Below are positions 9,460 through 35,241 of a DNA stretch of 64,000 bases, in pieces. The stretch is from a virus (Duplodnaviria > Caudoviricetes), in IMG/VR virus record IMGVR_UViG_3300002220_000519, positions 1-64,000 of that record; one strand, 5' to 3'. The notes under the pieces were generated by a model. That model was not told where the DNA came from, ran no database searches, and worked only from the letters and a program-made list of their open reading frames with translations. How positions within the stretch are numbered: position 1 is the stretch's first letter; each line of letters starts with the position of its first letter. The position numbers and the translations under genes are program-made.

Positions 9460-9460
9460 A

Positions 9461-10745: not shown

Positions 10746-10746
10746 A

Positions 10747-12279: not shown

Positions 12280-12306
12280 GGTACCTCCTTTTTGTAGTTA
12301 CAATGA

Positions 12307-13377: not shown

Positions 13378-13400
13378 GCATTACTCCCATGTTTTATTTG

Positions 13401-14033
13401 TTACTTTTTGTAGATCTGGAGCTTTGCAACGTGTTCATCTACTTCTGCTTTAACTGTAGCTAGTGCAGTTGTAAAGTCGTTGGCAAGCTTTTGGATCTTA
13501 TCTTCTTCTTGTGTGGTTTGTTGGCGTAGATCTCCGTGTTGCCTTAAGATCTCGCCTATTTGCTGTTTCTTTTGTTCGATATCAGTAGTTAACGATTGAA
13601 CTTGTGCAGTTAGACCATCCAGGGTTTTATTGGCGTCAACTACTTTGGATTGTGTTAACTGTTGTATGGTCTGCTGGAATTCGGCCTCTTCTTGGTCTAA
13701 TACAGCCAAGCACGCAGAGGCACCTTTCATAATATTGGGTATAGAGCTCCCCATAGCAGTCATTGTTGCAAGGACTGATTTAAGTCTTGCAGTTTCATCT
13801 GGTATGATACTGGCTTGAGCGGATAAAGCAGATGAAAAGTCAGCGTAAGGTTTGGTAGTAGGTGAATCGGCTATAGACTTTTGCAGCTCAACAATTATTG
13901 ACTGGTTTAAACTTGTTGGAAACTGGTGAATTACCGGCTGAAGAATAGCTGGTTTAGTTGTTTGAATTGGTTGTTCTGGCTTTTCTGTATCTTCTACAAG
14001 TCCAGCTTTGACCAGGAAATTTTTAAGACTCAT
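13401..14033 (-). CDS. Coiled-coil protein of the same cluster
   Basis: Heptad-rich; co-oriented with PspA-like and SBP genes. Confidence 0.6.
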   Translation of the reverse strand: MSLKNFLVKAGLVEDTEKPEQPIQTTKPAILQPVIHQFPTSLNQSIIVELQKSIADSPTTKPYADFSSALSAQASIIPDETARLKSVLATMTAMGSSIPNIMKGASACLAVLDQEEAEFQQTIQQLTQSKVVDANKTLDGLTAQVQSLTTDIEQKKQQIGEILRQHGDLRQQTTQEEDKIQKLANDFTTALATVKAEVDEHVAKLQIYKK

Positions 14034-14037
14034 TGCT

Positions 14038-14361
14038 TTAGGCCTTTCTTTTTAAACAATCGTGTAATAGAATGTTTATGTCTGTAAGTTTCTCTCTAAC
14101 TTTACCTGTTGGAGTACGAAGGATAAGGTCGCTTAGTTTTGCTAAGGCCTTGTCCAGACTTGCCTTATTTATTAGAAATTCGATGACGTGTTGACTATGA
14201 ACTGGGGTACTATATTTTACTAAGTAGTCGGTATCGGCTTCTTCGCTGAGTCCTTCGATAGCTCCTGCATAATACTTTATTTCGCCCATTTCGTTCTGTA
14301 TTTTGACAAGGCCAACATTTGTAGCCCCACTAATCCAATAGGTGTCTAATACCTTTACCAT
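14038..14361 (-). CDS. Hypothetical protein
   Basis: AAGGAG RBS. Confidence 0.55.
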   Translation of the reverse strand: MVKVLDTYWISGATNVGLVKIQNEMGEIKYYAGAIEGLSEEADTDYLVKYSTPVHSQHVIEFLINKASLDKALAKLSDLILRTPTGKVREKLTDINILLHDCLKRKA

Positions 14362-14376
14362 AATACTCCTTGTGTG

Positions 14377-14451
14377 TGGTACCTCCGAGGGGGATTGAAC
14401 CCCTGCTTCTACCTTGAAAGAGTAGCGACCTAACCACTAGTCGACGGAGGC
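14377..14451 (-). tRNA. tRNA-Glu(UUC)
   Basis: Cloverleaf; CTACT-CTTTCAA-GGTAG; CCA. Confidence 0.92.
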
Positions 14452-14742
14452 TTATTTCTTTTTTGTTAATTTGGGTAAATCTGGTGATATTGCTTTTATG
14501 TGTATTGTGCTAAGGTCAACATCAGCAAACTGTTTTCCTATATTTACTTTTGCAACTAGGTGATATATAGTAATGCTGTACTCGTGTCCCATATCATGAA
14601 CTGTGGTGTTGGTAGGTACTGACCTATATCTTACTTTTTGTCCGTCTTTGAGTATGGCTGTTCCACCAACCTTTTCGTTTATTGGGTATTTACCAAAGGT
14701 GTAAGTAAGGTACTCCCAGTCATTCTTTATTTTCAGTTTCAT
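14452..14742 (-). CDS. Hypothetical protein
   Basis: Start trimmed to MKLKIKND. Confidence 0.5.
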   Translation of the reverse strand: MKLKIKNDWEYLTYTFGKYPINEKVGGTAILKDGQKVRYRSVPTNTTVHDMGHEYSITIYHLVAKVNIGKQFADVDLSTIHIKAISPDLPKLTKKK

Positions 14743-15001
14743 AGTTTTTTCCCTGTGGGTTTTTATAGTTAAGGGTCCAGCCGTATGCCCAAATTTTGCT
14801 ACCGTCCCTAAAGGACTTCCACAACAGGTCGCCAAGAAAAGCTACTGGGCCCATTAGTATACAAAACAGAGCATAGATAAAGTCGTCTTGTTTAGAGGTA
14901 TCGCTAATAAAGCTGTATTTGCGCTGAAAGTATGCAAATGTCCAGCCAGCTGATGGTAGGCCAGACAGTAACCAAGCAGTAGCAATCAATAATACTTTCA
15001 T
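14720..15001 (-). CDS. Membrane protein
   Basis: Two hydrophobic segments. Confidence 0.5.
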   Translation of the reverse strand: MKVLLIATAWLLSGLPSAGWTFAYFQRKYSFISDTSKQDDFIYALFCILMGPVAFLGDLLWKSFRDGSKIWAYGWTLNYKNPQGKNYETENKE

Positions 15002-15258
15002 GGTGTGTTTCCTTCTATAACAGCAACTCCACCTTTATATGAAGAAAAGACATAGAATGTACGCCCATCTATTACTACTTTGTCGCAGTGAATTGTGTTG
15101 TTACTACCGCTATGGATAGTAGTTCTTTCAAGTTGGTTTGTTATCTGTACTACTTTTTTTGGTTTGTCTTTACTTAGCATAGGTGCAGACACAGTAAGTA
15201 TTATTGCAACAATGACTACTATTATCATAACCTCAACAAGTGTAAATCCATTTCTCAT
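14998..15258 (-). CDS. Type IV pilin-like protein (prepilin N-methylation motif)
   Basis: MRNG|FTLVEVMIIVVIVAIILTVSAP. Confidence 0.85.
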   Translation of the reverse strand: MRNGFTLVEVMIIVVIVAIILTVSAPMLSKDKPKKVVQITNQLERTTIHSGSNNTIHCDKVVIDGRTFYVFSSYKGGVAVIEGNTP

Positions 15259-16849: not shown

Positions 16850-17140
16850 CTACGGTGCTTTCCATTGGCCTCCTGGTTTTGTAGGGCAGCCAGCTTTTAG
16901 ATAGCATTCAGTACATAGAAAGTGTCCATTCTCTCTATTGTATGTACCTTCATCTGTTACTACATAGTAGTCTGGTGTACAGCGGTTTTGTAGGCCAGCA
17001 TCGATGTATTCTTGCAGCTGGTTAGGTTTCTTGCCACAGCCAGAGCACATTGGTTCAAAATCTCGCACTGTTTTACCGTATGGACATTTTACTGACCACG
17101 CACGTAAAGCACAGGCAGAGCTACAAAAAGAACAGTTCAT
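16850..17140 (-). CDS. Zn-binding hypothetical protein
   Basis: Several CxxC motifs; EGTYNRENGHFLCTECY. Confidence 0.6.
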   Translation of the reverse strand: MNCSFCSSACALRAWSVKCPYGKTVRDFEPMCSGCGKKPNQLQEYIDAGLQNRCTPDYYVVTDEGTYNRENGHFLCTECYLKAGCPTKPGGQWKAP

Positions 17141-17844
17141 GTACTGTAGACATCCTCACGAGTTATACATAGTACTTTGTCGAGCCCTTTTAACATACGG
17201 TTTTTATGTTGTCGGACTCTTTCACGAGATATATTAAAGCTTTTGGCTATAGTATCTAATGTTTGAGGCTCTCCCCAAAAGCCAAAAAGGCGCAGAATCA
17301 TAGTATAGCGTTTAGGATCACGTCTTTTTATTGCGTTAATCACCTTAGTACATAGTAAGCTGTCAGACATATGGCTGATGTTATGCGTTAGTTGTTTACG
17401 GTGGCTTACTACTTCATATGAATTTGTGCATGGTCGTACTAAGTCATTTCTATATGAAACTATGTCTGTGTGGTGGTCCTCAACTACTGTGCTTTTTATA
17501 CTAAAACTACTGTCTTGAGTAATGTTACGCGGAATATGTAAACAGGCTATATTATTATAAACGTACATATTCATTGCATGCCAAATCCATCGATGAGCGT
17601 AGGTTGTAAATTTCCCCTTCTTAGGATCATATTTTCCTATTGCTCTTGGTATAGCAAGTATGCCTTCTTGAACTAGGTCTTCAAAAAGGTCCGGGCGGTT
17701 AAAAGACGCGGCCGTGTTATATACTATGCCAAGTTGAGACTCCATAACTAAGTTACGGGCCTCGATATCATTATGCTTGGCCTTTTCAATTTGGTCAAGC
17801 ATAATGGTATAGTTTTGTACTAAGTCTTTGGGTGTAAATTTCAT
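17137..17844 (-). CDS. RNA polymerase sigma-70 family factor
   Basis: Region 2 DLVQEGILAI.RAI.KYDPKKGKFTTYA..WI; region 4 HTH QTLDTIAKSFNISRERVRQ. Confidence 0.9.
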   Translation of the reverse strand: MKFTPKDLVQNYTIMLDQIEKAKHNDIEARNLVMESQLGIVYNTAASFNRPDLFEDLVQEGILAIPRAIGKYDPKKGKFTTYAHRWIWHAMNMYVYNNIACLHIPRNITQDSSFSIKSTVVEDHHTDIVSYRNDLVRPCTNSYEVVSHRKQLTHNISHMSDSLLCTKVINAIKRRDPKRYTMILRLFGFWGEPQTLDTIAKSFNISRERVRQHKNRMLKGLDKVLCITREDVYST

Positions 17845-18017: not shown

Positions 18018-19478
18018 TCAGTCAAGCTTTATACCTCGAGCTATAGGCTGAAACGGAACGCCATTACTTGTAAGCCTAGTATAGTCGAAGGCAAGCGTTT
18101 CCCCAAGGTACTGATCAGGATTATTGTACATGTCCGTCTTGATGTCCGCACTATGTTCGCCGGCAACCGGTAGTTCTTTTCCATGCCAGCGTACGATGGG
18201 GATGACTGATTGTTTTTCTGTACCGGTGGTTGTTTGCTCTTGCTGAAACCCCACTATCTTTCCTTCGCTGTCGGTACGGAATTTTGCTTTTAGAGTCTCG
18301 TTTCCGTCTAGGCGTTGGAAGACAACACCATCAACGCCGTCCTCCGCTTTTGCCCGCGCAATCAACGCTGTTTTACCAAGCCTAGTTGTTGCGTAAGGCG
18401 GGACTTTGAATGGCCCATGAGGATTAGCATCATGGATAGCTTCAAGTATAACTAACTTCTCGCTATAAGGTAAACTGGCGACGTCTTTCCCGTTTACTTT
18501 GGTTACTTGAAAGCCATAAATCCAGGGGTCTCTTGCTGCGGCAAACGCTTTTACATCGTTAGGCTGTAGGCATTGGTTTAGTTCATAGAAATCGTCTACC
18601 CAAACTTCAGCCTTGCCTTCGATGATAGTTTTACCTCTGTAGGTTCCAATACGTTGAGAGAGCCTTTTACCATCTAGCCCATTTTCTATCTGTGAGACCC
18701 TATCTTTAAGCTTGGGTGTCCAGTCTATTTGGGCTGTCTTTCCGGTTTGTTTGGCCAATCTCTTATCTTGTCTGTGTGAACCAATAGAGAATGTGTTCTT
18801 TCCTGTTCTTGGGTCTATATCTAGCCTCCAATTGCTCTGTGCTCCATCCTTCTTAACAGAGGCAAGGTAGGCAGGATCGTTTGTGTAACCTTTTGCCTGA
18901 TCCCATGTTATCTGTTTATAGTGTCCTTTAGGACTATTTGGTATGTCTCTTGGGTTAGCCCGTACCATCTTGTTGTCTCCAAGATATACCCATACTCCTT
19001 TCTTATTTTCAAACTTTATGTGTAGATGATCGTTTTCTGTCCAAATAAGGGCTCGTCCTTTGTCTACTACTTTGCTAGTGCCAGCACCGTAGCCTTCTTT
19101 AATTATTGCTGGGTTTGTTGGTTTATAATGTTCTGGTTGTAATACCCAGGTTCTTAAACCAAACTTGTCCCACTTAGGATTAGAGGTTGCCCAGCGGTAG
19201 TAGCGTCCGTCTTGTGCTTGTATAGTAATATCATAGTGTAGGTTAGTAGCGTTGTGTTCTTCTATCCAATATCTTGTTAGTGTAGGTTGTTCAACTGGAG
19301 TGATTGTAGAGACTTGCCAAGATGGAAAGATAGGAGAACCCCTAAGACGGGCAGTTTCAACTATGCGATTTCTGGGGGCCGGTATGTTTTTGGTAATGAA
19401 CTTGTTAGCTAGTTGCCGCTTTGATAGGAACCTTATTCCTATATTAGCTGTAGCCAGAAAAAACGCATACCAATTCAT
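18018..19478 (-). CDS. ATP-dependent ligase with N-terminal LigD-type 3'-phosphoesterase domain
   Basis: PE-like EHNATNLHYD...QPEH...GYGAGTSKVVDKG; ligase motifs KKDG, DGVVF, LKAK; OB-like LTSNGVPFQP. Confidence 0.65.
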   Translation of the reverse strand: MNWYAFFLATANIGIRFLSKRQLANKFITKNIPAPRNRIVETARLRGSPIFPSWQVSTITPVEQPTLTRYWIEEHNATNLHYDITIQAQDGRYYRWATSNPKWDKFGLRTWVLQPEHYKPTNPAIIKEGYGAGTSKVVDKGRALIWTENDHLHIKFENKKGVWVYLGDNKMVRANPRDIPNSPKGHYKQITWDQAKGYTNDPAYLASVKKDGAQSNWRLDIDPRTGKNTFSIGSHRQDKRLAKQTGKTAQIDWTPKLKDRVSQIENGLDGKRLSQRIGTYRGKTIIEGKAEVWVDDFYELNQCLQPNDVKAFAAARDPWIYGFQVTKVNGKDVASLPYSEKLVILEAIHDANPHGPFKVPPYATTRLGKTALIARAKAEDGVDGVVFQRLDGNETLKAKFRTDSEGKIVGFQQEQTTTGTEKQSVIPIVRWHGKELPVAGEHSADIKTDMYNNPDQYLGETLAFDYTRLTSNGVPFQPIARGIKLD

Positions 19479-22789: not shown

Positions 22790-23347
22790 GGTATAATTAA
22801 CCTATAGAAGTAAGTTTAAGGAGGTTGTACCAGGTGAAACGCATTGAATTCTTGTTTTTTGTAATTTTCCTGCGGCAAAACTGTAGGAGAGCCACAGAAA
22901 CGGCCCAGACCCCATAGCAGGACCTTGAAAACTGATGCAGAGGCTGGAGAAGACCGAGGTTATTGACCTACGCCAGCCTATTATGTTGTTTCTATGTATT
23001 CAGCGCCTGTGACTCTCTTATAGCTTTACGTCTGTTTTGGCTTCTTGTGCCTTGTTTTGTCTTGGGTGTATGTACTCTTTCTCCTGGTTTTCGCTTCCAT
23101 TTCACCCTTGGCAAATCTGGGAGCTTCTTCTTTTTCATTGAGTTCACATAGATGAGATAAGTTTAACTTCCGGAGGTTACAATCCTCCTTTTCATGACAG
23201 GTGGCACAGGACTGGCTCATTTTGTCTTGTTCCTTGTTAAAAAGTATATCACTATGAATACCAGGATGAGTAAGACCCATTCAGCTGCACCAGACATTGA
23301 CCATAACCAGTGTAAAAACACGGTTTTATCTCCTTTTGATGTATAAT

Positions 23348-23590
23348 TCCCGTAACCTTGCGGTTACGGGCTAGGGTGCCACGTACCTGTAGGCCAGACC
23401 GACGGAACCGCGGACCTACCTTGGGGGCCCCTGCTCCCCAAGGGGTAATTGCCTACGCCATAAACATTCTAGGTGACCCAACACCTAGTTCCGTTCCCTT
23501 GCGGGCCTACCAAACCAGGAGATGGTCTAGTAGGATTCAGCCGTGGCTTCGAGACACCGGAATGATGTCTAATTTTATATATGTAAGTTC
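23348..23590 (-). ncRNA. Candidate multi-stem structured RNA
   Basis: Nested stems GTAGGCC/GGCCTAC and ACGGAAC/GTTCCGT; hairpins CTAGGTG/CACCTAG and CCTTGGGG/CCCCAAGG; two GCAA tetraloops on the minus strand. Confidence 0.55.
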
Positions 23591-23605
23591 CTTATCGCAA
23601 AGAAC

Positions 23606-23941
23606 TTAGGTTAAAACAGTTTGAACTGTATGATCAAAGGTCAGAGCATTCTTACAGTAGCTGAAGATCTCTTTTCTCCATAGAATAATAGAGACTACAG
23701 CGCTACCGACAGAGCCAATCATAAATGAGTATAGACCGGCTCCAGCTAATAGAATGACAATAGCGGATAACGAGACGTCCATTAGGAACCTTCTCGTCTC
23801 TTCGGCTAGTGGTACAAAAGATTTAGCTGATCTCTTATGCGCAAAGCCTAAGAACGCTGCCATTATATTAGCGAGCTCTTTAAAGTAGAAGAAGACATTA
23901 ATTAGTAATGCTGCTACTCCCAATAATATCATAGATATCAT
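23606..23941 (-). CDS. Membrane protein
   Basis: Three hydrophobic segments. Confidence 0.55.
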   Translation of the reverse strand: MISMILLGVAALLINVFFYFKELANIMAAFLGFAHKRSAKSFVPLAEETRRFLMDVSLSAIVILLAGAGLYSFMIGSVGSAVVSIILWRKEIFSYCKNALTFDHTVQTVLT

Positions 23942-23946
23942 AGTTT

Positions 23947-24387
23947 TTAACCTCCTTTCTGCGATTTACTCAGCCTATCTAGGACAGATTGGCTGTTCTC
24001 CTTATGCATTCCGGTAATCTTATGGGTATCCCAATTATCTACCTCGCACCGACAAACTGAACACCAGTTATTAGGACAACGCCCTTCGGTGTGTAAGTCT
24101 AAAGATGCGTGGCACTTTGGACAATCGTCGTTTTCTTCTTCTGTGGCGGTGCCCCCCGCTTGCGCGGGGCCCCCCGCCCCATACCCGAAGTGAAAGAATT
24201 GTCTTAGTATGTATATTAGCAGGACCACCTTGAGTGGGACGAGTATAACATTGATCAATAGTACTCGTCCCACTGTTATAGGTTCACCCCAAAGGTTGAT
24301 GAAGGCTCCCCCAGTGTCTAACGCAACGAATATGAGTGTACCTATGATGATTTCTACTGCCAATACTGAAGCAATTAACTGCTTCAT
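23947..24387 (-). CDS. Membrane protein with C-terminal Cys cluster
   Basis: Two TM helices + CPKC...CPNNWCSVC. Confidence 0.55.
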   Translation of the reverse strand: MKQLIASVLAVEIIIGTLIFVALDTGGAFINLWGEPITVGRVLLINVILVPLKVVLLIYILRQFFHFGYGAGGPAQAGGTATEEENDDCPKCHASLDLHTEGRCPNNWCSVCRCEVDNWDTHKITGMHKENSQSVLDRLSKSQKGG

Positions 24388-24593
24388 TTTGCGGGCTGCA
24401 TGCTGGGTTCGGGGTATGCCAGCCTATCATGCTGTTTCTCCAGGCGGGCTATACCTTTGTCGCAGGCTGTCTTGACCTTGTTGGCGCTGTCACGGACTGC
24501 GACCGCTGATACCTTGCCCAACTGAACGACAGCCAGGCCGGTGTACATTAAGGCCACTTTTCCCAGTGTGGCCAATTTTTTGGTCTCGGACAT
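24384..24593 (-). CDS. Amphipathic-helix paralog family member
   Basis: GLAVVQLGKVSAVAVRDSANKV; AAGGGAG RBS. Confidence 0.6.
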   Translation of the reverse strand: MSETKKLATLGKVALMYTGLAVVQLGKVSAVAVRDSANKVKTACDKGIARLEKQHDRLAYPEPSMQPAK

Positions 24594-24642
24594 GATGGTC
24601 TCCCTTATTAATGATCTGTTGATTATTTAAGTTAACCTGGGG

Positions 24643-24951
24643 TTAGGCTACGGCCGGGACGGGCTCTGGTTTCTTGAACGGGATCACATTGCCGAGCCTG
24701 GTCTTCAGGTCGGTTGCGATCTCCTTGGCGTCGGCGGCTAACTTCTTGTTGTCCAGTTTCTTCTCCGCCCTGATGCAGGCCTGGTTTAACTGCTCGGCTC
24801 TCTTCGCGACCTTGTTGGCGCCGTACCTGATGCCGATGAGGCCGATGCGAGCTGTGGCGTTCCCCATCAATATGGGGCCGACGATCGCGACGCTGGCGGA
24901 AATCCGGGCTGCGTCACGGAAGTCTTTGCTGGCTCTTTTCAGTTCTAACAT
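24643..24951 (-). CDS. Amphipathic-helix paralog family member
   Basis: GNATARIGLIGIRYGANKVAKRA; start trimmed to the ATG after AGGAGA. Confidence 0.6.
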   Translation of the reverse strand: MLELKRASKDFRDAARISASVAIVGPILMGNATARIGLIGIRYGANKVAKRAEQLNQACIRAEKKLDNKKLAADAKEIATDLKTRLGNVIPFKKPEPVPAVA

Positions 24952-25100
24952 CTGAGTAATCTCCTTGTTTTGTTCAATTTTTGTGGGTTTTCTCTTGTTT
25001 TTGGTGAATTTTTGAGAGGAGTGGTTCACCCCGAACCACCCCTCTTCTGGTTGTTGCGTAGGCACTTTGTTGCGACTCCTACGCTAGTCCCGGTAGGACA

Positions 25101-25421
25101 CTACTTGCCCTTGGCCTCTTCGAGCGGAACTTCCTGGGAGCTGGTGCCCACGGCTACGCCATTGATCTTGACTGAGTAGCGGGTGACCACGAATTTCCCT
25201 TCCAGTTCGAAAGTGGCGTCCTTCAGGGCTCCGGAGTTGACTGCCTTCCGGATGTTGCCGGCGAGGTTCCGATCCTGGAAGCTGAGAGGGTGGTTGGTCT
25301 CGGTGTTGTCCTTGGCGACCGAGACGGCTCTGAAGAAGCGGGGCTGGCCATCGCTTTGGGCGATACCGCTCAGCGGATCGGGGCGCAGGGATACCTGGAA
25401 ACTGGTTTTCTGACCGTCCAT
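25101..25421 (-). CDS. Small RNAP-adjacent protein A
   Basis: DPLSGI...DGQP..F.A; paralog of 29180..29518. Confidence 0.65.
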   Translation of the reverse strand: MDGQKTSFQVSLRPDPLSGIAQSDGQPRFFRAVSVAKDNTETNHPLSFQDRNLAGNIRKAVNSGALKDATFELEGKFVVTRYSVKINGVAVGTSSQEVPLEEAKGK

Positions 25422-25440
25422 CGTATTATCCTCCTTTCTT

Positions 25441-27882
25441 CTAGGATTCCTGATTCATATGATCAGGTTTGTTTTCCAAGACAAGAGAGCATTCGGCAGG
25501 GGGAAGGACTGCGGGCAAGGGAGCGCTTAGATTATGCGCTAAGTAGTCGGACATACGCTCTATGGCTCCTGTGCAGGCGTAATGCCGAACGAGGCCCGGC
25601 AGGTTGTCTAAGGCCGTTCCGCCATATACCCTGTTCGCGAGTTCTCCCGGTCCGAGTGGTGCGATCAGTGTGAACAGGAAGTCGCTCATCTTGGATGTAG
25701 CTATGACCTGTCCAAATCTCACTGCCACGGACACTCGATCTGTTACCGGTAGAGCGCGTACTTTAGCCGCAGCTTCGTAGACTGCTGTGAAGCTTGGCTT
25801 GCTTGGTTGGCGGCCGGTTAGGGCGTCCCCAGCTGCGTATGCAACTGCGTCTCGGAATGCGTCCATGAGGCCCTTGGCGATATCTTCTGTTACTGTGCTA
25901 AAGGCCATCACGGGTTCTGCCATGATCTTTTGTGCGAAGCCGGCTCTGTCGAATGGTTGCTGCTCGACTATCTCGAAAGCGGGCAAGTTTCCGAGTAGGT
26001 TGTGCACCCATCCAGTTAAGCATAGATCCCATGTCTTATCCGTATGGGAGACGTGTGATTTCCAGGTTGCGTCTATGCTGCTGTAGTGCTTTACTCGGGC
26101 GTTCCAGTCGAGTGCTGCCCGGCCCATTTCCTTGTGTAACCATGGCATTGTGGTTGGGAACCCCAGCGTCTTTAAATACCCTCTGACGCTACGCATGATA
26201 CTTCTTGCGTCGAAGTCCCCGTTCTTGGTTGCCTGTATCGACATGTGGTAGGATTGGGCAAGGATATCTTCTGCATATGACAAGTCTACCCCTGTGCACT
26301 GAACGATACAGCGTATAAGAGATAGCATGTTGCAGATGGTGCCGACTGATGCGCCACTGGCTTGTGTCTTGTAGGCATCTTCGTAGGCTGTGGTTACTAC
26401 CCTGCCAGTTCCTTTGGTCATATCGAGGTGAGGCTTAGGTGAGGTTTTGAGTTTGAAATTGTAGATGAATATAGTGTCACCGTCGAAATCCCCGTTATGG
26501 AACTCTTTCCAGTCTTCGGGGTTAACGTAGGCCGCGTGATCTGGGGCGGTATTTGTTCTGAATGTGTAGTGAACCTTGTACTGCCTGATCTCCGACTTCT
26601 GATTGATAGGGTACCGCACTACTGTGACGGTCTGGGGGCGACCAAATGCATTCCAGGCTTTGCGGGATAAGATGATGTCACCTCTCCTGCATTTGGCAGA
26701 CGGAAGAGCCAGCGCGGTGTGGCCCTTCTCTGTGTAGAATCCTTTTCTTAATTGATTGGCATACCAATGGGCTGCCTGCCAGGTTGCTCTCTGACAGGTT
26801 GGGTGTGTATCGGCTGTGGCCCCGGCTGCGAATAAGAATTCAGCCTGCATACGAAGCTCACGATTAAGTCCGTCTTCGGTAGGGATGTTACCTGGTAATA
26901 GGTCGAATGCATCGTGCACTTTTAGGATCTTTTGCATTGCGTAGCTGTCACCGAGGATAGCATCTTGTAAGTCCGTAACTAGAGGCACGAGTTCGGCTTC
27001 AACTACTTCTCTCCAGTTGTCGCACAGGCCAAGCAGTTGATAGGAGAGATTACATCCTATGCGATAGAACCAGTCTGAAACAGAAACCAGGCGGAATTCG
27101 GAAATCTTGAAGGTGTGCTTGCCTGGCTTGCGTGGTTCTCCCTTGTCGTTGCCGTTCCAGTATAACAGCTCTCCTGGTTCATCGGTGTTGGGGTCAAGGT
27201 AGAAGACTACCTTGCTTGAGTGTGGCCATATACCTGAAAGCTTGATGGCCGTGGGTAAATGGATAACTTGTCCTTCCTCGTTGATCATCTTGTCGAGATT
27301 ATAGGCTGCTACCATATTGGCCATAATCTTCTTGCTTACGCGCATACAGCCGTCGAGACTCGGGTGTTCTTCGTCTGTAACGACTACATCGAATGCATAC
27401 TCTGATTGTGGTAATATGGCTGGTTGGTGAGAAACTCCGGCGGCTTTGGCATTTGACCATGGCACTTTGACTTGATCGTTGATGCCTACCAATAGTTTCC
27501 AGTCCAAGGCCATTTGCTTGGGGGTTGGTAGGATAACAGCGTTTGGGCCAACCTGTTTGTGGATCTGGTCCATTACATCTGTTGGCGTGTCGTTGTTGAT
27601 CGGGGCTGGAACTTCATACCACCAGGAAACTTCAGGTTCGCCATTTGTATAGTTGAGCAGGCCGTTTGCGCCTCTCGTGTACCCGCTGTTCTTTCTGAGT
27701 ACTGTGACTACCTTAATTGTCTCCGAATGTTTAATTACATAGTCACGGACCCAAGAATCCCGTACACCCTTGATTTTTGCACGCTTATTTGAGTCTGGGT
27801 CGTTGAGCAGCACCAGAGGATCTTCTTCCCAAACCAAGTAGTTTGGGCTATCCTGTGTAGCCATAGGGATCTTCAGTCCCAT
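25441..27882 (-). CDS. Single-subunit two-barrel RNA polymerase A (YonO/QDE-1 RdRP-like)
   Basis: DGCMRVSK, NLSYQLL, VVRYP, NGDFDGD (26476-26496), SIQATK. Confidence 0.75.
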   Translation of the reverse strand: MGLKIPMATQDSPNYLVWEEDPLVLLNDPDSNKRAKIKGVRDSWVRDYVIKHSETIKVVTVLRKNSGYTRGANGLLNYTNGEPEVSWWYEVPAPINNDTPTDVMDQIHKQVGPNAVILPTPKQMALDWKLLVGINDQVKVPWSNAKAAGVSHQPAILPQSEYAFDVVVTDEEHPSLDGCMRVSKKIMANMVAAYNLDKMINEEGQVIHLPTAIKLSGIWPHSSKVVFYLDPNTDEPGELLYWNGNDKGEPRKPGKHTFKISEFRLVSVSDWFYRIGCNLSYQLLGLCDNWREVVEAELVPLVTDLQDAILGDSYAMQKILKVHDAFDLLPGNIPTEDGLNRELRMQAEFLFAAGATADTHPTCQRATWQAAHWYANQLRKGFYTEKGHTALALPSAKCRRGDIILSRKAWNAFGRPQTVTVVRYPINQKSEIRQYKVHYTFRTNTAPDHAAYVNPEDWKEFHNGDFDGDTIFIYNFKLKTSPKPHLDMTKGTGRVVTTAYEDAYKTQASGASVGTICNMLSLIRCIVQCTGVDLSYAEDILAQSYHMSIQATKNGDFDARSIMRSVRGYLKTLGFPTTMPWLHKEMGRAALDWNARVKHYSSIDATWKSHVSHTDKTWDLCLTGWVHNLLGNLPAFEIVEQQPFDRAGFAQKIMAEPVMAFSTVTEDIAKGLMDAFRDAVAYAAGDALTGRQPSKPSFTAVYEAAAKVRALPVTDRVSVAVRFGQVIATSKMSDFLFTLIAPLGPGELANRVYGGTALDNLPGLVRHYACTGAIERMSDYLAHNLSAPLPAVLPPAECSLVLENKPDHMNQES

Positions 27883-27954
27883 CGTTCACGCTCCTTTCAC
27901 TAGTTGAATTAACGGTAAGATTCCTGCCAAAACAGGGAGAGAATTTGGCGAGGG

Positions 27955-28236
27955 TTATCGATCACTCGCAAGCTTCTCTGCTGCGTTAAGCTCCCTGTCC
28001 GCAGATATCTTCATCTGTTCTGCGTTACGGCCTGCTTCCCTGATGATGGTGGAGAGCGCGAACTCTAGGTGCTTGTAGGTGCCGACCTTCTGCCTGAGCC
28101 CGGCTATGGTTGTTTCCTTGACTGCGACCTCGTTGGTTAGCAGTTTGTTGTCCTGTTCTAAAGCTGTGGTCTGCTCGGTAAGTTCGGCTATCTTCTTTTC
28201 GAGTTCCCTAATTCTGCGAAATGGATTTAACTTCAT
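27955..28236 (-). CDS. Coiled-coil protein
   Basis: MKLNPFRRIRELEKKIAEL; AAGGAGG RBS. Confidence 0.6.
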   Translation of the reverse strand: MKLNPFRRIRELEKKIAELTEQTTALEQDNKLLTNEVAVKETTIAGLRQKVGTYKHLEFALSTIIREAGRNAEQMKISADRELNAAEKLASDR

Positions 28237-28357
28237 GTTTGTTCACCTCCTTTGCATAGTACTGGCGCTCCTTGCCTTCTAAGAAGCGGTTAACGTTTTG
28301 GGCTAGTTTCTGCCCGAAGTGTCCTGCGATGAGTGCGACTGCCATGCCGAACTTCAT
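28208..28357 (-). CDS. Small amphipathic protein
   Basis: MKFGMAVALIAGHFGQKLAQ; start trimmed. Confidence 0.45.
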   Translation of the reverse strand: MKFGMAVALIAGHFGQKLAQNVNRFLEGKERQYYAKEVNKHEVKSISQN

Positions 28358-28365
28358 GCCGTTGT

Positions 28366-28692
28366 CTACGACGGCTTTTCCGGAGACGGCGGCACGGGCG
28401 GCTTGGAGTTGGAGTTCTGTTTGGGAGAGCACGGTTCCTCCTTTCCCTTGAGTTCGTCCATGGCCTGGTCTAAGGCCTGGTCTGCGGTTAAGTTTCCTTC
28501 TGCTTTGAGTTCGAGTGTGCGGTTGACCACTTGGTAGGTTAACTTGCCGGCCTCTATCTCGTTGTCTATCTTCTCCTTAGCACGCTTAGCTATTTTGGTT
28601 GCGCTCTTGGCTGCTTCGTCTCCGAGCCTTCCGAACACAGCGCCTATTGTGATGATGCCGGCTGCGATTTTCCGTTTGGTAGTGTCTTCCAT
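28366..28692 (-). CDS. Amphipathic-helix paralog family member
   Basis: IGAVFGRLGDEAAKSATKIAKRA; AAGGAGG RBS. Confidence 0.6.
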   Translation of the reverse strand: MEDTTKRKIAAGIITIGAVFGRLGDEAAKSATKIAKRAKEKIDNEIEAGKLTYQVVNRTLELKAEGNLTADQALDQAMDELKGKEEPCSPKQNSNSKPPVPPSPEKPS

Positions 28693-28759
28693 GACTGATC
28701 ACCTCCTTTTAAATGGTTGTGTGGCCTTGTTCGATGCAGGGAGTTTGCGTCTTTCATTC

Positions 28760-29130
28760 CTTTCTCCTTATATTAATGGTTTAGTTGATTGCGAACGGCG
28801 CCAGCTTATTCACCCATGGCTTTACGCCTTTAAGTGGGAGTGGTGGGGCTGGCTACCAGGACGGTCAGTCACCACGACCGACACGGGCCTGGGCTGTTCA
28901 ATCTCACACCTGTGGAACCAGACCCTATATATGAATGTAAGTGTTTGCACCGCCCTCAATTAAGAGGACGGCGGAAAGGTTGCCAGGCCTAGCTTCGCTG
29001 TTGGGAAAAGGACAGCGCAAGCGTAGTTTTTACAACTACCCGGGTTGCAGGCAGTTAACCACGCGGGGAAGGCAACAGATTACTACCACCACAAGGGATA
29101 TATGTTATTGACACACATATCCTATATGAA
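28760..29130 (-). ncRNA. Candidate ~350-nt multi-stem structured RNA or leader
   Basis: Long-range GTGGTGG/CCACCAC and GTTGCC/GGCAAC; hairpins GTAGTT/AACTAC, CGCTGT/ACAGCG, CCAGG/CCTGG, CCAGC/GCTGG. Confidence 0.5.
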
Positions 29131-29134
29131 TTTT

Positions 29135-29171
29135 AAAAGACCGAAGGGAGCGTTAACTCCCCTCAGTCTTT
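29135..29171 (-). terminator. Intrinsic terminator-like hairpin
   Basis: AAGACTGAGGGGAG-TTAACG-CTCCCTTCGGTCTT-TT just after gene 29180..29518. Confidence 0.65.
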
Positions 29172-29179
29172 ATGAATGA

Positions 29180-29518
29180 TTATTCAGGCACGCAGGTGGC
29201 AGTCCCCCGACCCAGCACCAAATCCTGGCCGATATCGAAGACCTCGCGGACCTCGATGGCTTTCCTGGTGATCGGGATGGTGACGGTCTCACCCTTGGCC
29301 GACGCAGCGATCAGCTTGTCCCTGAGCTGGCCACCGATGGACTTGGCAGCGAAGCTGATGTGCAACCGGCGACCGTCCGGGAGCGTGGCCTGGAACAGGT
29401 AGGGCCGACCGTCTTTGAAGTTGATGCCGCTCATGGGATCGAAGGACAGAACGGCGTTTACGGACGCTTCGGCCAGCACCTGGGCGCCAGCCTGGAACTT
29501 CTTGGTGAAGTTGCTCAT
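29180..29518 (-). CDS. Small RNAP-adjacent protein B
   Basis: DPMSGI...DGRP..F.A; paralog of 25101..25421; AGGAGA RBS. Confidence 0.65.
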   Translation of the reverse strand: MSNFTKKFQAGAQVLAEASVNAVLSFDPMSGINFKDGRPYLFQATLPDGRRLHISFAAKSIGGQLRDKLIAASAKGETVTIPITRKAIEVREVFDIGQDLVLGRGTATCVPE

Positions 29519-29757
29519 GGTAAGGTCTCCTAATAGAAGTTTAAAAGTTGACATACGCTCTGAGTGAGCTATGCCAAAACAAGTGAGTATTCGGCTAGGC
29601 TAGAGACTTCGGCTAGGATAGACTGCAGGCTGGGGGGCCGGCAATCCTCTCCCTACGCATACGAGTTTAAATAGCTAGTGTATGACTACCTGGTTATAAC
29701 CTAGTTGCGTTTAGTCTTCTAAATATGAGCGCCTGTCACGTTTGTTTTGTGTTGTTG

Positions 29758-32040
29758 TTACTTTTTGAATATGTTGTTAGCCAGAATGAACTGGTCAGGA
29801 TAGGCCTCGACCAACTTCTCTGGGGTTAGTGTGTTGCAGGCTAAGCGTGCTAATCCCACGTGCCGCCAATCCATGAATGACCACATCTTTAATGTGTTAC
29901 TCTTGGCCAGCTTGTAGCCCCACCTAAAGACGAGTTGCAAGTATACTTCGGGAGTAATGGTTACTTGTGTTAAGCCTGTAGCAACGCAGATTAGTCTATG
30001 GGTTTTGTGGTCTCTGGTCCACTTGCCAGGTACCCAGAATCTCCCGCCCTTACGTGCTGCTGCCTGTAGCCTGCGGAACTTGGAGAATGCCTTAGTGTTG
30101 TCGTGGTTCTCGAGTAGGTTCTGAGCAGCCTGACCAAAGATAGTATTGAAGAACTCGAATACTAGCTCTGCATCCTGATTGGGGGCCTTCAGGTACACAC
30201 TATAGAAGCTCTTCGCCAGTATTGAGCGGGCCTGGTCTGTAATGCTTGGTATAGTTGGTAGGGCGGCAATCTTCTTCAACATATTGGTGCGCACGAAGTT
30301 GTCCCACTCTTTACCAAGGTTAGCCATAGTCTTAGTCTCTGTTACCCTGGTGTTCCACGCCTCAAGGATGTTGTTCTTGGATACCTGCCACTTCTTTTGT
30401 CTCCAGAAGCAGCCTCTGATGTTGAAGTTCTTGCGCGCGTAGTCCCTAATGTCTCTAACGACATCATCACCACCTATGTCCATATGCTTGATGGCCTGGA
30501 TGGACATATTATAGGCGACCCCTGCGTTATTGATTAGCCCCTTAAGGTCAGCACGGTCAAAGGCCGTTTCTAACCCTATAGCTAGTTCCTGAGCTAAACA
30601 CACACGCCCGATCTCCTTATATGCAGCCCGTGTTTCTAAGAACTCCTCATAAGGAGTGAGTGCCTCTTTGGCACCCTTCGCTATGGTTGGCATGGTCATC
30701 GTACCAAAATCCTTGGGCTTTAACGGCAGGTTAATGACAAAGATCAGATCCTTGTCAAAGTCCCCGTTATGATTGGTGCGCCATGAGTCAGGGTTAATAC
30801 TTACTGTGTGCCAGCTAACCACCTTGTACTCAACTATTTCCTTCGGGCCATTGAGCGGGTAACGGACAACCCATACAGTGGCCGGGTTCCCCATTTTACG
30901 CTGGACATCAAGTGGCAGCCCTATTTCGTTGGGCTTTATAACGCGTGACGGTAGGGCTATCTCCATGAGTCCTACGTTCTTCGGCAGTGGAACCCCGCGA
31001 GATAGATCTCTGGTTCTGATGCCCAGCAGTGTGACTGTGAAGTTGGCAAGTTCAGGTGAGAGCAACGGATTGCCGCCATTTTCGATGGCAAAGCGGGACA
31101 TGGTCAGCCGATCCGCCCAGCGCGGGTTGACGAATGTATCGACTTCTGGATCGTAGTTTTCGTCGAACATAAACGTCTCACCGAGATCTATCAAGTCAAG
31201 TATGTCTGGTTGGATGTGTTCCATGTAATACTCCTGAATCTCCTCGGTCGTCCTGCCCGCTGGTACACCTGTTGACAGATAGTTTGCAACTGCTGTAATT
31301 TTGGTCATCCAGGGCGCACCAAAGCGCTCGATAAGTTGTGTTCCATTTACTAGCAGCTGTGTTACCATGTGAGACAACCAGATACGATTAGTAGAGTAGT
31401 CATCACCGAGTGCTACTAGCCTGAGGTCTCTGATGTCAAAGGTGATTGTACCCTGACGTTTGACACCCTTGTCGTTGCCCTTGAATGTAATTATGCTGCC
31501 CTCTAAGCCACGCTTGAAGACTATCTTTGTGCAGTTGGGCCAGATACCAGCAAACCCAGCAGCGTCTATGTTGCCTATTCTGTTCTGTGACACACCATAC
31601 GCCTCCAAGATCTTGTCGAACAGGCCCTTTGGGATTGTGGTACAGCCGTCCTCGGCCCCTTCTTGCACGGTGTCTACTATCTCGGCGTCGAACTTGATTG
31701 GTACCTGGGTTGCGCGGCCAGGTTGTTGACTGACAGCTAAGGCTTTGCTACTGTCAATTGGGGCCTCTAGCGTTGGGTTCTTGGTAACCCAGACCAGCCC
31801 GGCCTTCATATCCGTCTTGCTCGTCCTCAGGAATCGTTCGCCTGGTTCCAAGACGCTCTCAGCTACATCCAGCGACACCTCAGTATGGTATTTGCTAATC
31901 TCTATACCAACAGGTGTGTGGAAGAGCTCTTGTCCAGTTATACGTTCCCTAGTCACATGGTTAGCAACCAACCAGGCTGCCACGTGGCTGTTGACCGCGC
32001 CGAAGGGCTCAGTCTTGCGAGAGATATTAGTGTAGTTCAT
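29758..32040 (-). CDS. Single-subunit two-barrel RNA polymerase B (YonO/QDE-1 RdRP-like)
   Basis: DGCTTIPK, GIWP..K.VF, GNDKG, VVRYP, NGDFDKD (30748-30768), SIQAIK; start trimmed to MNYTN after AAAGGA. Confidence 0.72.
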   Translation of the reverse strand: MNYTNISRKTEPFGAVNSHVAAWLVANHVTRERITGQELFHTPVGIEISKYHTEVSLDVAESVLEPGERFLRTSKTDMKAGLVWVTKNPTLEAPIDSSKALAVSQQPGRATQVPIKFDAEIVDTVQEGAEDGCTTIPKGLFDKILEAYGVSQNRIGNIDAAGFAGIWPNCTKIVFKRGLEGSIITFKGNDKGVKRQGTITFDIRDLRLVALGDDYSTNRIWLSHMVTQLLVNGTQLIERFGAPWMTKITAVANYLSTGVPAGRTTEEIQEYYMEHIQPDILDLIDLGETFMFDENYDPEVDTFVNPRWADRLTMSRFAIENGGNPLLSPELANFTVTLLGIRTRDLSRGVPLPKNVGLMEIALPSRVIKPNEIGLPLDVQRKMGNPATVWVVRYPLNGPKEIVEYKVVSWHTVSINPDSWRTNHNGDFDKDLIFVINLPLKPKDFGTMTMPTIAKGAKEALTPYEEFLETRAAYKEIGRVCLAQELAIGLETAFDRADLKGLINNAGVAYNMSIQAIKHMDIGGDDVVRDIRDYARKNFNIRGCFWRQKKWQVSKNNILEAWNTRVTETKTMANLGKEWDNFVRTNMLKKIAALPTIPSITDQARSILAKSFYSVYLKAPNQDAELVFEFFNTIFGQAAQNLLENHDNTKAFSKFRRLQAAARKGGRFWVPGKWTRDHKTHRLICVATGLTQVTITPEVYLQLVFRWGYKLAKSNTLKMWSFMDWRHVGLARLACNTLTPEKLVEAYPDQFILANNIFKK

Positions 32041-32090
32041 TGGGTTCCTTTCGATTTGTTTGAAATTGTTTGTTTGAAGTTTAGATCTCT

Positions 32091-32474
32091 TTAGATCTCT
32101 TCTGCCGGATTCCAACCGTCTATGTTGAAATCCGGGGTGGTCATTGGTGCATCCAGTGTAGCCTCAGCCGTGCCGAGATAGCAGCACAATACCGAGTGCT
32201 GTATTTCGAACGCGGCCGGCCTATTGATGATGAGCCAGAAGGGCTCATACACACCAGCGGCTACCTGTCTATCGGCTGGTCTTAGGAACAGTCCATTCTG
32301 TCCATTGAGCAGTCGGCCGCCCTTCACGGCAAAGACGTTGTTAAAGGTCAGGTCTATTACGGCGACCTGTTTACCGATTGGTGTAGGCAGCCTTGTAATG
32401 GCCACCTCGGTCAACACTAGCCCCACTGGGAGACTAGTGATGGCCTTGCTTAGTCTGTGGATTTCTTTAGGCAT
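32091..32474 (-). CDS. spoVG: SpoVG-like nucleic-acid-binding protein
   Basis: LTEVAI...KQVAVIDLTFNNVFAVKGGRLLNGQNGLFL...IN......IQHSVL..Y follows the SpoVG pattern. Confidence 0.65.
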   Translation of the reverse strand: MPKEIHRLSKAITSLPVGLVLTEVAITRLPTPIGKQVAVIDLTFNNVFAVKGGRLLNGQNGLFLRPADRQVAAGVYEPFWLIINRPAAFEIQHSVLCCYLGTAEATLDAPMTTPDFNIDGWNPAEEI

Positions 32475-32880
32475 GACCTTCTCCTTCAAAGATGTTTAAT
32501 TGTTGTAATTTTTGTGGCTCCTGTCTGCTTCCTCCTGGTTTCCAGCCGGGTCGTGTTCTTCTTAGCACCATGGCCTTCTCCCAACTTGTGAGACCCCTAA
32601 TGGAGAGCAGTTGGTAGTTCAGCCACGTTCCGTTCAACCACATCCCGTTCATCACTATGACCTTGTTTGTGACGTGGTTGACACTGACTTTGAAACTATA
32701 AGCGTCCCCCACCCTCTTGACTGCCCAGAACGACTCTATAGCCTCAAGTAGCAGGTGCCGGTATTCTATGACTGCCATGATCTTATCCTCCTCATAAGTT
32801 TCTTCCAGTAGTATGGTATAATCACCACAATTAATGATAGTCCCACTATGGCGACAATTGATGCTAAAATGAGGTACCAA
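32467..32880 (-). CDS. Hypothetical protein
   Basis: ORF in operon. Confidence 0.45.
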   Translation of the reverse strand: MVPHFSINCRHSGTIINCGDYTILLEETYEEDKIMAVIEYRHLLLEAIESFWAVKRVGDAYSFKVSVNHVTNKVIVMNGMWLNGTWLNYQLLSIRGLTSWEKAMVLRRTRPGWKPGGSRQEPQKLQQLNIFEGEGHA

Positions 32881-32964
32881 CCTAGCCTACCAGCTGCGTT
32901 CGAATCGGTTGCGGCCAGAAAAGCACCGACCAAGAACGTGCAGAAAGCTCCGAGGGCCATGTTC

Positions 32965-33237
32965 TTATCCATTTATCTCTCCTTCTCTTTCTTTTAGGGC
33001 CAAGTCGACGACCCTGTTAATTACTGGGTTGAATATGCATGTACTGTTACTGTTGCAGCTCAGTTGATGATAGCACCCAGCACAGACCTTTTCTGCGTGG
33101 GTCTTGGCATCCTCAACCCACCCTATTCTTATCATGTTGTCCACTATTCTGGTTTGTGTTTGCAGCCACCTCACTCTCCTCATGGTAGCGGCTGTCACTC
33201 TCCTGGCCTCCCAGGACCTTGTTTCGTTCTTTGCCAT
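32965..33237 (-). CDS. Cys-cluster hypothetical protein
   Basis: CAGC...C...C; GGAGG RBS. Confidence 0.5.
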   Translation of the reverse strand: MAKNETRSWEARRVTAATMRRVRWLQTQTRIVDNMIRIGWVEDAKTHAEKVCAGCYHQLSCNSNSTCIFNPVINRVVDLALKEREGEING

Positions 33238-33350
33238 TATAATACCCTCCTAATTAATTTGTTGTTGTGGCACATGACGAGCACCACAATGTTACCGATG
33301 ATTGGAAGTTGGGTCATTGCCAGTATTGCCTTTTTCATGGTCAGTCCTTT

Positions 33351-33566
33351 CTATTTATTGGTTGTTGTAAGATGAGCGTAAGCCTCTGCCGCGAAGTCCC
33401 TGTTGTTATCTTCTTCTTTCTCCTGCAACTCGTAAATTATGTCAAGGAAGTCCTGCGCCATCCCGACGATCTTTGGCTCCGGGCAGTGGGCTACTATGTG
33501 TTGCAAACCCATGATGCTCCAGCTCTCTATTGAGAACTCTAGAGTTTCCATCCATGTTGCCCTCAT
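33351..33566 (-). CDS. Hypothetical protein
   Basis: AAAGGAG RBS. Confidence 0.5.
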   Translation of the reverse strand: MRATWMETLEFSIESWSIMGLQHIVAHCPEPKIVGMAQDFLDIIYELQEKEEDNNRDFAAEAYAHLTTTNK

Positions 33567-33578
33567 TGTGGCTCCTTT

Positions 33579-33980
33579 CTAATAAGCCTCGTGATCAATA
33601 ACGATATCGAGGCGGTTTACCTGAACTCCCGCGGTGGGAATCCAAGTGTTAATGTAGGCTACGAGGCTGTTGGCTTCCTTTAGGACCTTGTTACAGTCCT
33701 GAATCCCCTTGTTCAGCCTCTCTAGCTGGGAGGTGGACTCTGTGCCCGCTCTCACTGCAATGTAGTCCCTTCGGGTCTTCTTCACAGTGACTAGTAGTAC
33801 GGTTGCCAGTGCAAGTATCCGATCCTTGGTGCCTTGGGGCATGGGTGTGTTTGTTTCCTTCCAGTCCCAGACAAAGGACTGTAGGAGGTTGAGTAGTAAC
33901 CTGTGTTCCATGATAGTTCCCCTTTCTTTGTAGTTACCTTTGCGTCCCTGTTTTTCAACCCTTTTCTCGCTCAGGGTCAT
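33579..33980 (-). CDS. Hypothetical protein
   Basis: First gene of the leftward block. Confidence 0.5.
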   Translation of the reverse strand: MTLSEKRVEKQGRKGNYKERGTIMEHRLLLNLLQSFVWDWKETNTPMPQGTKDRILALATVLLVTVKKTRRDYIAVRAGTESTSQLERLNKGIQDCNKVLKEANSLVAYINTWIPTAGVQVNRLDIVIDHEAY

Positions 33981-34791
33981 TTATGAACAGGCTATACAGC
34001 TCATGCATCGACTAGGTTATGCGATCCTGTCGAAGTTAATGGCTGGCTGTATTAAGCACGCCACATGCTTACTGTCATAGTCTACTAGGGAGACCAGCTT
34101 CTTATGACAGTGTCGTTGCCCAGCGGTACTAGCAGCCATGTGTCAGTTAAGATAGTATGGGATATGGCCTACAGATTTAGTGGTCTATGGTTGTGTCATA
34201 GCCACTCGTGATAAGGCATATAGATTACAAGGCTATATACCTGAGCTACACCTGATTATAGCATTACCGTCTATGATCGTTGGGCGTTTATCTCCCTCTT
34301 TTAGGGGTAACATTCGCACCTACTAGACCATGATTTATAGTGAGAGAATAAGGCTCACTATTGTTCATCAGCCTTTGAGGTTGCTATGCTCTATGACTGA
34401 CGACGGAGTTATTATTGCTAGACATTATTAGGGAGGTTGTTACTACCTTATGACCTCGAGATCCCTTGGTCCTCTCCTCCTAAGATACCCTAGAATGTCA
34501 CTCATGTTGAGACTACATCTTTCAAGGACATGTCTTCCTTGATTGATACCCATATGGGCCTGGCATACTTAAATGCTCAGCTGCATTTTAGGGACACCCG
34601 GGGGGCTCGAAACCCTAGGTTAATTCCCTTATTATTCTACTATGGTCTCAGCAAATCATTTCGTTTTTCCGGAAAATCCCTATAGAATTTTCCAAAAATC
34701 CCGGCAGCAGTCCCCAAAAAACCCCCAAAGTAATTCCAAGATTTCACCATTCCCTATCAGCTTACTTAGGTAGTCATATACTGTAGGCCTA

Positions 34792-34820
34792 TTGACTTTT
34801 AAGGTAAAATGTGGTATAAT
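34792..34820 (+). promoter_or_regulatory. Sigma-70-type promoter
   Basis: TTGACT-17 nt-TATAAT with extended TG. Confidence 0.85.
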
Positions 34821-35241
34821 GTATATATAAATGAAAGGAAATAAAATGACAGACCAAATGAAAACTAAGGTGTTTGATTGTCCTGTTCATGGGTGGGAAA
34901 TACAGGCCTTCTGTTTTCGTAGTGAGCTTCCTGAAAATGCAGATCGGTGGCACAAAGCAACAATAACACTCGATGAGGAAAAATAACTATGTTAAGTTCA
35001 CTCCGGCGATTGCATAGACTTTAAATTAAAAGTATAAAGGGGGAGGGTAATGATAACAGTTAAGAACCTAAGAGAGAGACTTGTAGGCCTTAATGATGAT
35101 GACAGGGTGTATGCTTATGAGGGAGAGGCTACTGGGATAGTTATTGTAAGGAGAGACGAGGATGGGAAATATAACGAATTGTGCTTTATAGAAGCAGCTA
35201 ATACTGTTAGAGATGAAAACAAATAACTAAAAGGAGGGGAA

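Follow-up and report, generated by a model that had tools for sequence, protein, structure and literature searches.

The left arm of the 64,000-nucleotide (nt) stretch analyzed here (the window, which is the first 64 kb of the 85-kb IMG/VR virus record IMGVR_UViG_3300002220_000519) encodes in tandem two large paralogous polymerases, designated RNA polymerase A (RNAP-A) and RNAP-B. On the strength of predicted structures, both are supported as single-chain two-barrel polymerases of the clade that includes YonO, gp64, crAss gp66, and the RNA-dependent RNA polymerases (RdRPs) of eukaryotes. Given that the Pfam RdRP family, PHROGs, and a YonO profile all miss these proteins and that only about eight related clusters could be found, they constitute a new, very divergent, and rare family within this YonO/RdRP/gp64 clade, with a canonical DFDGD loop. 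Also new are the conserved layout of the pair, in tandem and in one orientation, with small partners that are paralogs and a SpoVG-like neighbor, and the conserved island of raised G+C content at third codon positions (GC3) in which they lie. The explanation that appears probable, and that is held with moderate confidence, is that they are two DNA-dependent RNA polymerases that arose by an ancient duplication and serve different promoter or temporal classes of genes. The source phage is also present on an ENA contig of 210,996 bp, ERZ27315067 k141_2085742, and on that account is a jumbo phage.

The original prediction, an earlier reading of this DNA, had proposed two full-length, mutually homologous open reading frames, and both are present on the minus strand, aligning in BLASTP at 27% identity over 471 amino acids (aa; E 6e-37). 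Every motif it had listed (GIWP..K.VF, GNDKG, VVRYP, HNGDFD(G/K)D, and MSIQA.K) aligns between RNAP-A and RNAP-B, and the three catalytic aspartates that it assigned to each are indeed there, as DFDGD in RNAP-A and DFDKD in RNAP-B. RNAP-A has a ribosome-binding site, AAAGGAG, 8 nt ahead of its ATG, and RNAP-B likewise has AAAGGA ahead of its ATG; a longer TTG-initiated frame of RNAP-B (to 32115; 785 aa, P0002) was rejected, as it overlaps the upstream gene and three other contigs call another form. Across a 20-sequence alignment P394, R423, P425, D465, D467, and D469 (RNAP-A numbering) are near-invariant, and the aspartate triad is intact in all seven of the full or partial family members aligned. 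The fourth position of DFDxD varies among G, K, and Q in both clades of the family (described below), so DFDKD does not mark a degenerate enzyme; in crAss gp66, too, the residue there is not glycine. The family has only these two polymerase copies in the 85-kb record.

The AlphaFold2 model of RNAP-A reaches a predicted local distance difference test score (pLDDT) of 77 and a predicted template-modeling score (pTM) of 0.71. It supersedes a first model built from a 4-sequence alignment (pLDDT 44), the Foldseek hits of which agreed, and the rise from 44 to 77 came from adding weak-tail profile relatives to the alignment. An N-terminal barrel (residues ~163-268) is followed in the model by a catalytic barrel (~381-474), which carries R423-Y-P and D465-F-D-G-D469, and then by long helices. 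The region ~163-268 forms a second beta-beta-alpha-beta-beta-beta-beta unit, and the whole-chain alignments to gp64, RDR2, and QDE-1 span it; within it K223, K247, and R264 are conserved across family alignments and are candidates for the basic residues of the first barrel that would face the aspartate triad. The best Foldseek matches are all two-barrel RNA polymerases, namely QDE-1 (1.3e-13) and RDR2 (1.8e-13), followed by phage gp62/gp64 (1e-8), P23-45 gp96 (1e-5), and crAss gp66 (7e-4). Alignment with VIA-align gave Z 17.9 against phage P32 gp64 (517/595 residues aligned), Z 17.3 against maize RDR2 (575 residues), and Z ~15 against QDE-1 (~600 residues, up to 620). RNAP-A residues 371-630 align with the active-site region of Rpb1 at Z ~14, cellular Rpb1 being aligned over ~200 residues only. 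Likewise, ESM Atlas models place both paralogs with RdRP-family clusters over 550-640 residues, with template-modeling scores (TM) of 0.60 for RNAP-A and 0.58-0.63 for RNAP-B (pTM 0.59), so that the two-barrel layout is based on the AlphaFold2 model for RNAP-A and on Atlas models for both. The catalytic barrel with a DxDxD triad that marks the two-barrel superfamily is thus predicted in each protein, and, as in the single-chain phage/RdRP clade, one open reading frame holds both barrels, at whole-chain Z 15-18 over 517-620 residues. The original prediction had staked itself on a double-psi beta-barrel around DFDxD and on a YonO/QDE-1-like single-subunit enzyme; the model matches bear out the former, and the latter agrees with the structural comparison, in which solved QDE-1, RDR2, and phage gp64/gp62 rank first, each match extending past 500 residues.

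By sequence, relatives are few and distant. Pfam and PHROGs returned no match for RNAP-A or RNAP-B, and the Pfam RdRP family (PF05183; gathering threshold 23.8 bits) matched neither protein at E up to 1, nor a six-frame search at E up to 10. A six-frame search of the record with the YonO family hidden Markov model (HMM) found nothing, PDB sequences searched by phmmer and profile gave nothing meaningful for the polymerases, neither tblastn nor megablast matched anything in 50,697 phage records, and a pattern scan of viral contigs detected no relative. A further homolog search with the family alignment, which saturated on candidates, brought in no new member. A metagenome scan yielded one distant locus only, and the eight or so clusters came from a profile search of 1.84 billion representatives. 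The weak tail of that profile (E 1e-6 to 1e-3), always on the stretch from R-x-P to DxDxD, consists of proteins with Pfam RNA_pol_Rpb1_2 or RdRP; among the distant matches P0020 is the sole carrier of PF05183. Comparison of the family with a YonO alignment built from six phages (hhalign) gave E 1.8e-4 at a probability of only 48% over 277 columns, in which the motif pairs DGC/DGCG, SYQ.L/NYQ.LQ, RYP/RSP, and DFDGD/DxDGD are collinear; the family alignment did not match a single YonO sequence.

The polymerase cassette recurs in another phage, known from a 15-kb contig (L010), in the same order and on one strand: first a gene of the SpoVG family, then a clade-B polymerase (P0008, which shares 24% identity with RNAP-B), a homolog of partner-B, a weak homolog of the 108-aa gene, and a clade-A polymerase (42% identical to RNAP-A). 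In a maximum-likelihood tree clade A (95/100) stands apart from clade B (94/98), and each clade holds a member from both phages; the duplication is therefore older than the split of the two phages. Judged from these sequences, it is an old duplication of which both copies were retained with intact aspartate triads. The duplicated cassette with partner proteins that had been predicted is thus supported, and a second phage lineage has kept the pair. In L010 RNAP-B and its partner gene are separated by an inserted PcfJ-like gene of 587 aa (8438-10201), hence RNAP-B and partner-B need not adjoin.

Each polymerase gene of the window is followed by a small gene, as had been claimed, and the products of the two, partner-A and partner-B, are mutually paralogous (BLASTP E 2e-6), with no Pfam or PHROG match for either; partner-B has an ortholog in L010 (10293-10709; 34% identity, E 6e-8). 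Of the two small proteins encoded at the head of the RNAP-A unit, the 108-aa one has a weakly similar counterpart in L010 (E 4e-4), right upstream of the RNAP-A ortholog. An extension of the duplicated unit to a third gene was considered and rejected, the 108-aa and 140-aa proteins matching at a nonsignificant E of 0.029 and the 93-aa and 69-aa proteins not at all. The predicted terminator hairpin, the spacer, and the two small genes all lie between the polymerase genes, which places RNAP-A and RNAP-B in separate units. Upstream of RNAP-B, the SpoVG-like gene of the original prediction is present in the sense that its product covers 77 of the 82 positions of Pfam SpoVG (PF04026; E 2.4e-5), but the score of 24.8 bits falls below the 29.6-bit cut-off, and membership in the family is marginal on the sequence evidence. 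Its L010 homolog (E 1.6e-6), at the same position in the cassette, has a SpoVG hit that is precomputed and unmarked. Proteins of the SpoVG family are reported to bind RNA or DNA.

The spacer between the two units is predicted to be structured. At the matching point of L010 the gene calls leave no intergenic gap of similar length (no sequence search was made there), and for this reason the spacer is not treated as part of the conserved system. A second GC-rich intergenic stretch, at 23281-23605 (-), has a fold z of -3.3 relative to shuffles, and neither structured stretch has an Rfam match. A tie of the polymerases to two structured RNAs, as put forward in the original prediction, is not supported in that form.

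Table. Positions in the window of the polymerase genes and associated features
Feature	Position	Strand	Remarks
Sigma-70-family factor	17137-17844		left arm
Partner-A, 106 aa	25101..25421	-	paralog of partner-B; starts 20 nt past the RNAP-A stop
RNAP-A, 813 aa	25441..27882	-	clade A; single-chain two-barrel RNA polymerase (open reading frame, predicted structure)
DFDGD metal-binding triad codons of RNAP-A	26476..26490	-	residues 465-469; motif scan and alignment
Two small genes heading the RNAP-A unit	27955..28692	-	108 aa and 93 aa, the latter coiled-coil-like
Non-coding spacer between the B and A units	28693..29134	-	~440 nt; predicted structured; z -4.58, 0/100 shuffles as stable
Intrinsic-terminator-like hairpin	29135..29171	-	closes the RNAP-B/partner-B unit; GC-rich 16-bp stem, then UUUU; minimum free energy fold of 28693-29179 (-)
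Partner-B, 112 aa	29180..29518	-	paralog of partner-A
RNAP-B, 760 aa from ATG	29758..32040	-	clade B; paralog of RNAP-A with RYP and DFDKD; orthologs P0005 and P0008
DFDKD triad codons of RNAP-B	30748..30762	-	residues 452-456 of the 785-aa TTG frame; motif scan
SpoVG-like protein, 127 aa	32091..32474	-	ends 50 nt upstream of RNAP-B

The cassette is further set apart by its base composition. The GC content at 23-34 kb is 0.48-0.54 versus ~0.40-0.44 elsewhere, and the GC3 of the cassette (23600-34000) is 0.59 versus 0.36 in every other gene group of the 85-kb record, so that the distinct GC-richer block noted earlier is real. In L010 (~3000-15074) the orthologs lie within the same GC-rich island, as they do in a third phage (L007; ~9000-14000), known from the 224,118-bp contig ERZ27315072 k141_1694984, the proteins being only 24-43% identical. 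Because it surrounds such diverged orthologs, the island is a maintained property, and recent horizontal import as the cause of the GC content was rejected. An origin in the avoidance of codons read by the phage tRNAs was also considered and dropped, the effect being modest. The conserved GC3-rich composition suggests that the cassette is expressed under a regime unlike that of the rest of the genome, probably early.

Genes left of ~34 kb run on the minus strand and those right of ~35 kb on the plus strand, and a divergent non-coding region of ~800 nt (34000-34830) separates the leftward and rightward arms. At the end of this region, at 34792-34820 (+), stands a strong, near-consensus, extended -10 sigma-70 promoter (TTGACT, 17 nt, TG-n-TATAAT), and no comparable left-facing promoter was found within the region. 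The strong site suggests that host RNA polymerase starts at least the rightward early genes. As for the host-type promoters that had been reported more widely, this one site stands, but there is no enrichment, the sigma-70 sites numbering 22 versus 20.6 in shuffles, which is at chance. No sigma-70-type promoter was found for the cassette, either by the scan or by a relaxed scan near the polymerases. Nor does the 85-kb record contain a T7-like or Rpb1-type polymerase.

In the favored explanation, the N-terminal double-psi beta-barrel of each enzyme would supply basic residues and the second barrel R-x-P and the DFDxD metal-binding loop, and together the two polymerases would give the ~211-kb phage host-independent transcription. 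RNAP-A and RNAP-B would split the work between promoter or temporal classes, the small partners serving as possible specificity or initiation factors and the SpoVG-like protein as an accessory, while the phage sigma factor, which had been claimed and is present in the left arm, might redirect host RNA polymerase to a further gene class. The division of labor is proposed because the genes lie in separate units with a terminator after B, because each polymerase has its own paralogous partner, and because B has the SpoVG-like neighbor. The DNA-dependent reading follows from the tested phage members of the clade, which are DNA-dependent RNA polymerases. YonO, for example, is DNA-dependent and its aspartate triad is essential (PMC5467207), and P23-45 encodes two paralogous single-chain two-barrel RNA polymerases that act as a temporal relay (10.1101/2022.12.01.518664).

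Several observations weigh against this explanation. No credible phage promoter motif emerged for either polymerase from k-mer enrichment in 52 intergenic regions or from inspection of its top words, and a direct-repeat search recovered ribosome-binding-site/start and coding repeats only, with no promoter motif. Among the structures nearest to the model are true RNA-dependent enzymes (QDE-1 and RDR2), so the template could be either DNA or RNA. In L007 a clade-A gene only (P0006, DFDQD) occurs within 22 kb, followed by a 106-aa gene; either not every member of the group has the two-enzyme scheme, or the B gene lies elsewhere in that genome. Beyond the window phage, partner homology was found only for partner-B, in L010, and the 106-aa gene after P0006 has no BLASTP match. 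Finally, the part of the genome searched amounts to 85 kb of ~211 kb.

Other arrangements of the same two enzymes have to be considered. RNAP-A and RNAP-B might act as one enzyme, either as a heterodimer, by analogy with the dimeric QDE-1 that ranks among the top structural matches, or as a complex with both partners, and it is consistent with this that two lineages with only 24-43% identity have both kept the two paralogs side by side in the same order. Yet the genes lie in separate units with a terminator and the ~440-nt spacer between them, each polymerase has its own diverged partner, which would fit two parallel holoenzymes better, both paralogs keep a full catalytic triad, and the clade-A gene of L007 has no B copy within 22 kb; a single joint enzyme is accordingly judged improbable. 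A different division, common in phages with two polymerase sets and indeed their commonest arrangement (PMC7824862; PMC7598289; 10.1101/2022.12.01.518664), would place one paralog in the virion, to be injected for transcription of the pre-early genes, with the other made after infection, as in phiKZ, AR9, and P23-45. The lack of any detected sigma-70-type promoter for the leftward cassette leaves room for such a starter other than host sigma-70. However, both genes lie in a single non-structural block of uniform composition, and neither adjoins a virion gene or is fused to one, whereas the strong host-type promoter of the divergent region points to host RNA polymerase for the rightward early genes; little probability is therefore given to virion packaging of either enzyme.

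The nature of the template raises a further alternative, in which one or both proteins copy RNA or single-stranded nucleic acid, whether to make double-stranded or antisense RNA, to amplify the adjacent structured RNA, or to prime DNA replication. In eukaryotes the best structural matches are enzymes that depend on RNA, QDE-1 can work on both RNA and DNA templates (PMC9508822), and the cassette contains a structured non-coding region and a conserved SpoVG-like neighbor. Against these stand the DNA dependence of YonO, gp64, gp96, and crAss gp66, the phage clade members that have been tested (PMC5467207; 10.1101/2022.12.01.518664), the L010 gene calls (again with no sequence search), which show no gap of similar length at that point although the polymerases there are conserved, and the missing Rfam match, so that copying of RNA or single-stranded templates seems unlikely. 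Bolder still, and just as unlikely to be right, is the thought that the cassette might be a self-contained, conserved two-polymerase relay, in which each enzyme would need its own ~110-aa partner, a new class of specificity factor, and RNAP-B, with the SpoVG-like protein, acts on RNA, single-stranded DNA, or a structured spacer transcript to switch on RNAP-A; if true, this would also explain the conserved GC3-rich island.

In light of what is known of other phages, the original suggestion of an undescribed system holds only in part: the kind is known from P23-45 (10.1101/2022.12.01.518664), but the family and its arrangement are new. The non-virion gp64/gp62 enzymes of the Thermus phages P23-45, P74-26, and P32 (PDB 8F72, 8F5M) share the single-chain two-barrel fold and give the best structural Z; P23-45, which has gp96 as its virion enzyme, also shares two paralogous single-chain RNA polymerases, an old duplication, and different times of action (10.1101/2022.12.01.518664). 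Identity to gp64 in the structural alignment is nevertheless only 9-10%, and no sequence search finds gp64. Further, in P23-45 the two genes lie apart and one of the paralogs forms a fusion with the tape-measure protein, whereas the window pair are free-standing, of similar size, and in tandem, each with a small paralogous partner. SPbeta YonO resembles them in its length of ~800 aa, in having both barrels in one chain, and in the motif order DG(C)G, (S/N)YQ.L, R.P, DxDGD, but the YonO HMM misses the window proteins and YonO is single-copy. Similarly, YonO-sized Atlas clusters (TM ~0.5) carry HTH_23 or Sigma70_r4_2, while neither RNAP-A nor RNAP-B contains anything that Pfam recognizes. Bacillus phage 0305phi8-36, a distant relative by its terminase, has a single YonO-like gene (209367-211550, -) in a 1246-aa open frame, which the YonO profile matches (E 3.5e-32) and the window-family profile misses.

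The likeness to QDE-1 (2J7N, 7Y7P-T), RDR2 (7W82, 7ROZ), and PF05183 consists of Foldseek values of 1e-13, 575-620 residues aligned at Z 15-17, and an Atlas TM of ~0.6. The eukaryotic RdRPs differ in their N-terminal extensions, which the window proteins lack, and, as noted, PF05183 gives no match; they copy RNA in silencing pathways, and none is evident in the window phage. Jumbo phages of the phiKZ/AR9 type likewise have two paralogous two-barrel polymerase sets and host-independent transcription (PMC7824862, PMC7598289). Theirs, however, belong to the cellular clade and are multisubunit enzymes split in the beta/beta' manner, and Pfam RNA_pol_Rpb1_2 is absent from the 85-kb record; they also encode no sigma factor (PMC7824862), whereas the window phage has one.

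No relatives of the enzyme that transcribes all cellular genomes are simpler than the single-chain two-barrel polymerases, and the families that have been studied are a handful: YonO, crAss gp66, P23-45 gp64/gp96, and QDE-1/RDR. A compact natural pair of ~800-aa enzymes with candidate accessory subunits is therefore a tractable system. The questions that it opens are how promoter specificity and labor are divided after duplication of a minimal RNA polymerase, what a minimal initiation factor may look like, and why a transcription cassette has a distinct base composition.

Beyond the cassette, the right arm carries tail-fiber-like genes and a terminase large subunit, 58583-61735 (+), that is split by an intein with a LAGLIDADG endonuclease domain. 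The nearest cultured relatives of the terminase (24-27%) are those of the Bacillus jumbo phages Edson, WH1, KLEB27-3, and 0305phi8-36, Moorella phage MTATph1, and Acinetobacter phage ME3. The left arm contains, in addition to the sigma-70-family factor and the two large polymerase frames, auxiliary metabolic genes at 1-1065 (-), 9461-10249 (-), and 10747-12279 (-), with products that include a nicotinamide phosphoribosyltransferase, an ABC-transporter permease, and a periplasmic substrate-binding domain (NMT1/phosphonate-like) fused to an OmpA domain. These genes, together with the cyanobacterial clusters among the Atlas neighbors, are no more than hints at a host. Directly upstream of the sigma factor, a 486-aa protein, 18018-19478 (-), resembles the LigD 3'-phosphoesterase domain only at a level below threshold and, going by that similarity, may be a ligase or repair enzyme. 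Nine tRNA genes (Ala, Glu, Leu, Asp, Pro, Ile, Gly, and two Ser) are distributed over both arms, from 7781-7855 to 54156-54241, and five of the nine (Ala, Glu, Leu, Pro, and one Ser) have a T-first anticodon, reading A-ending codons.

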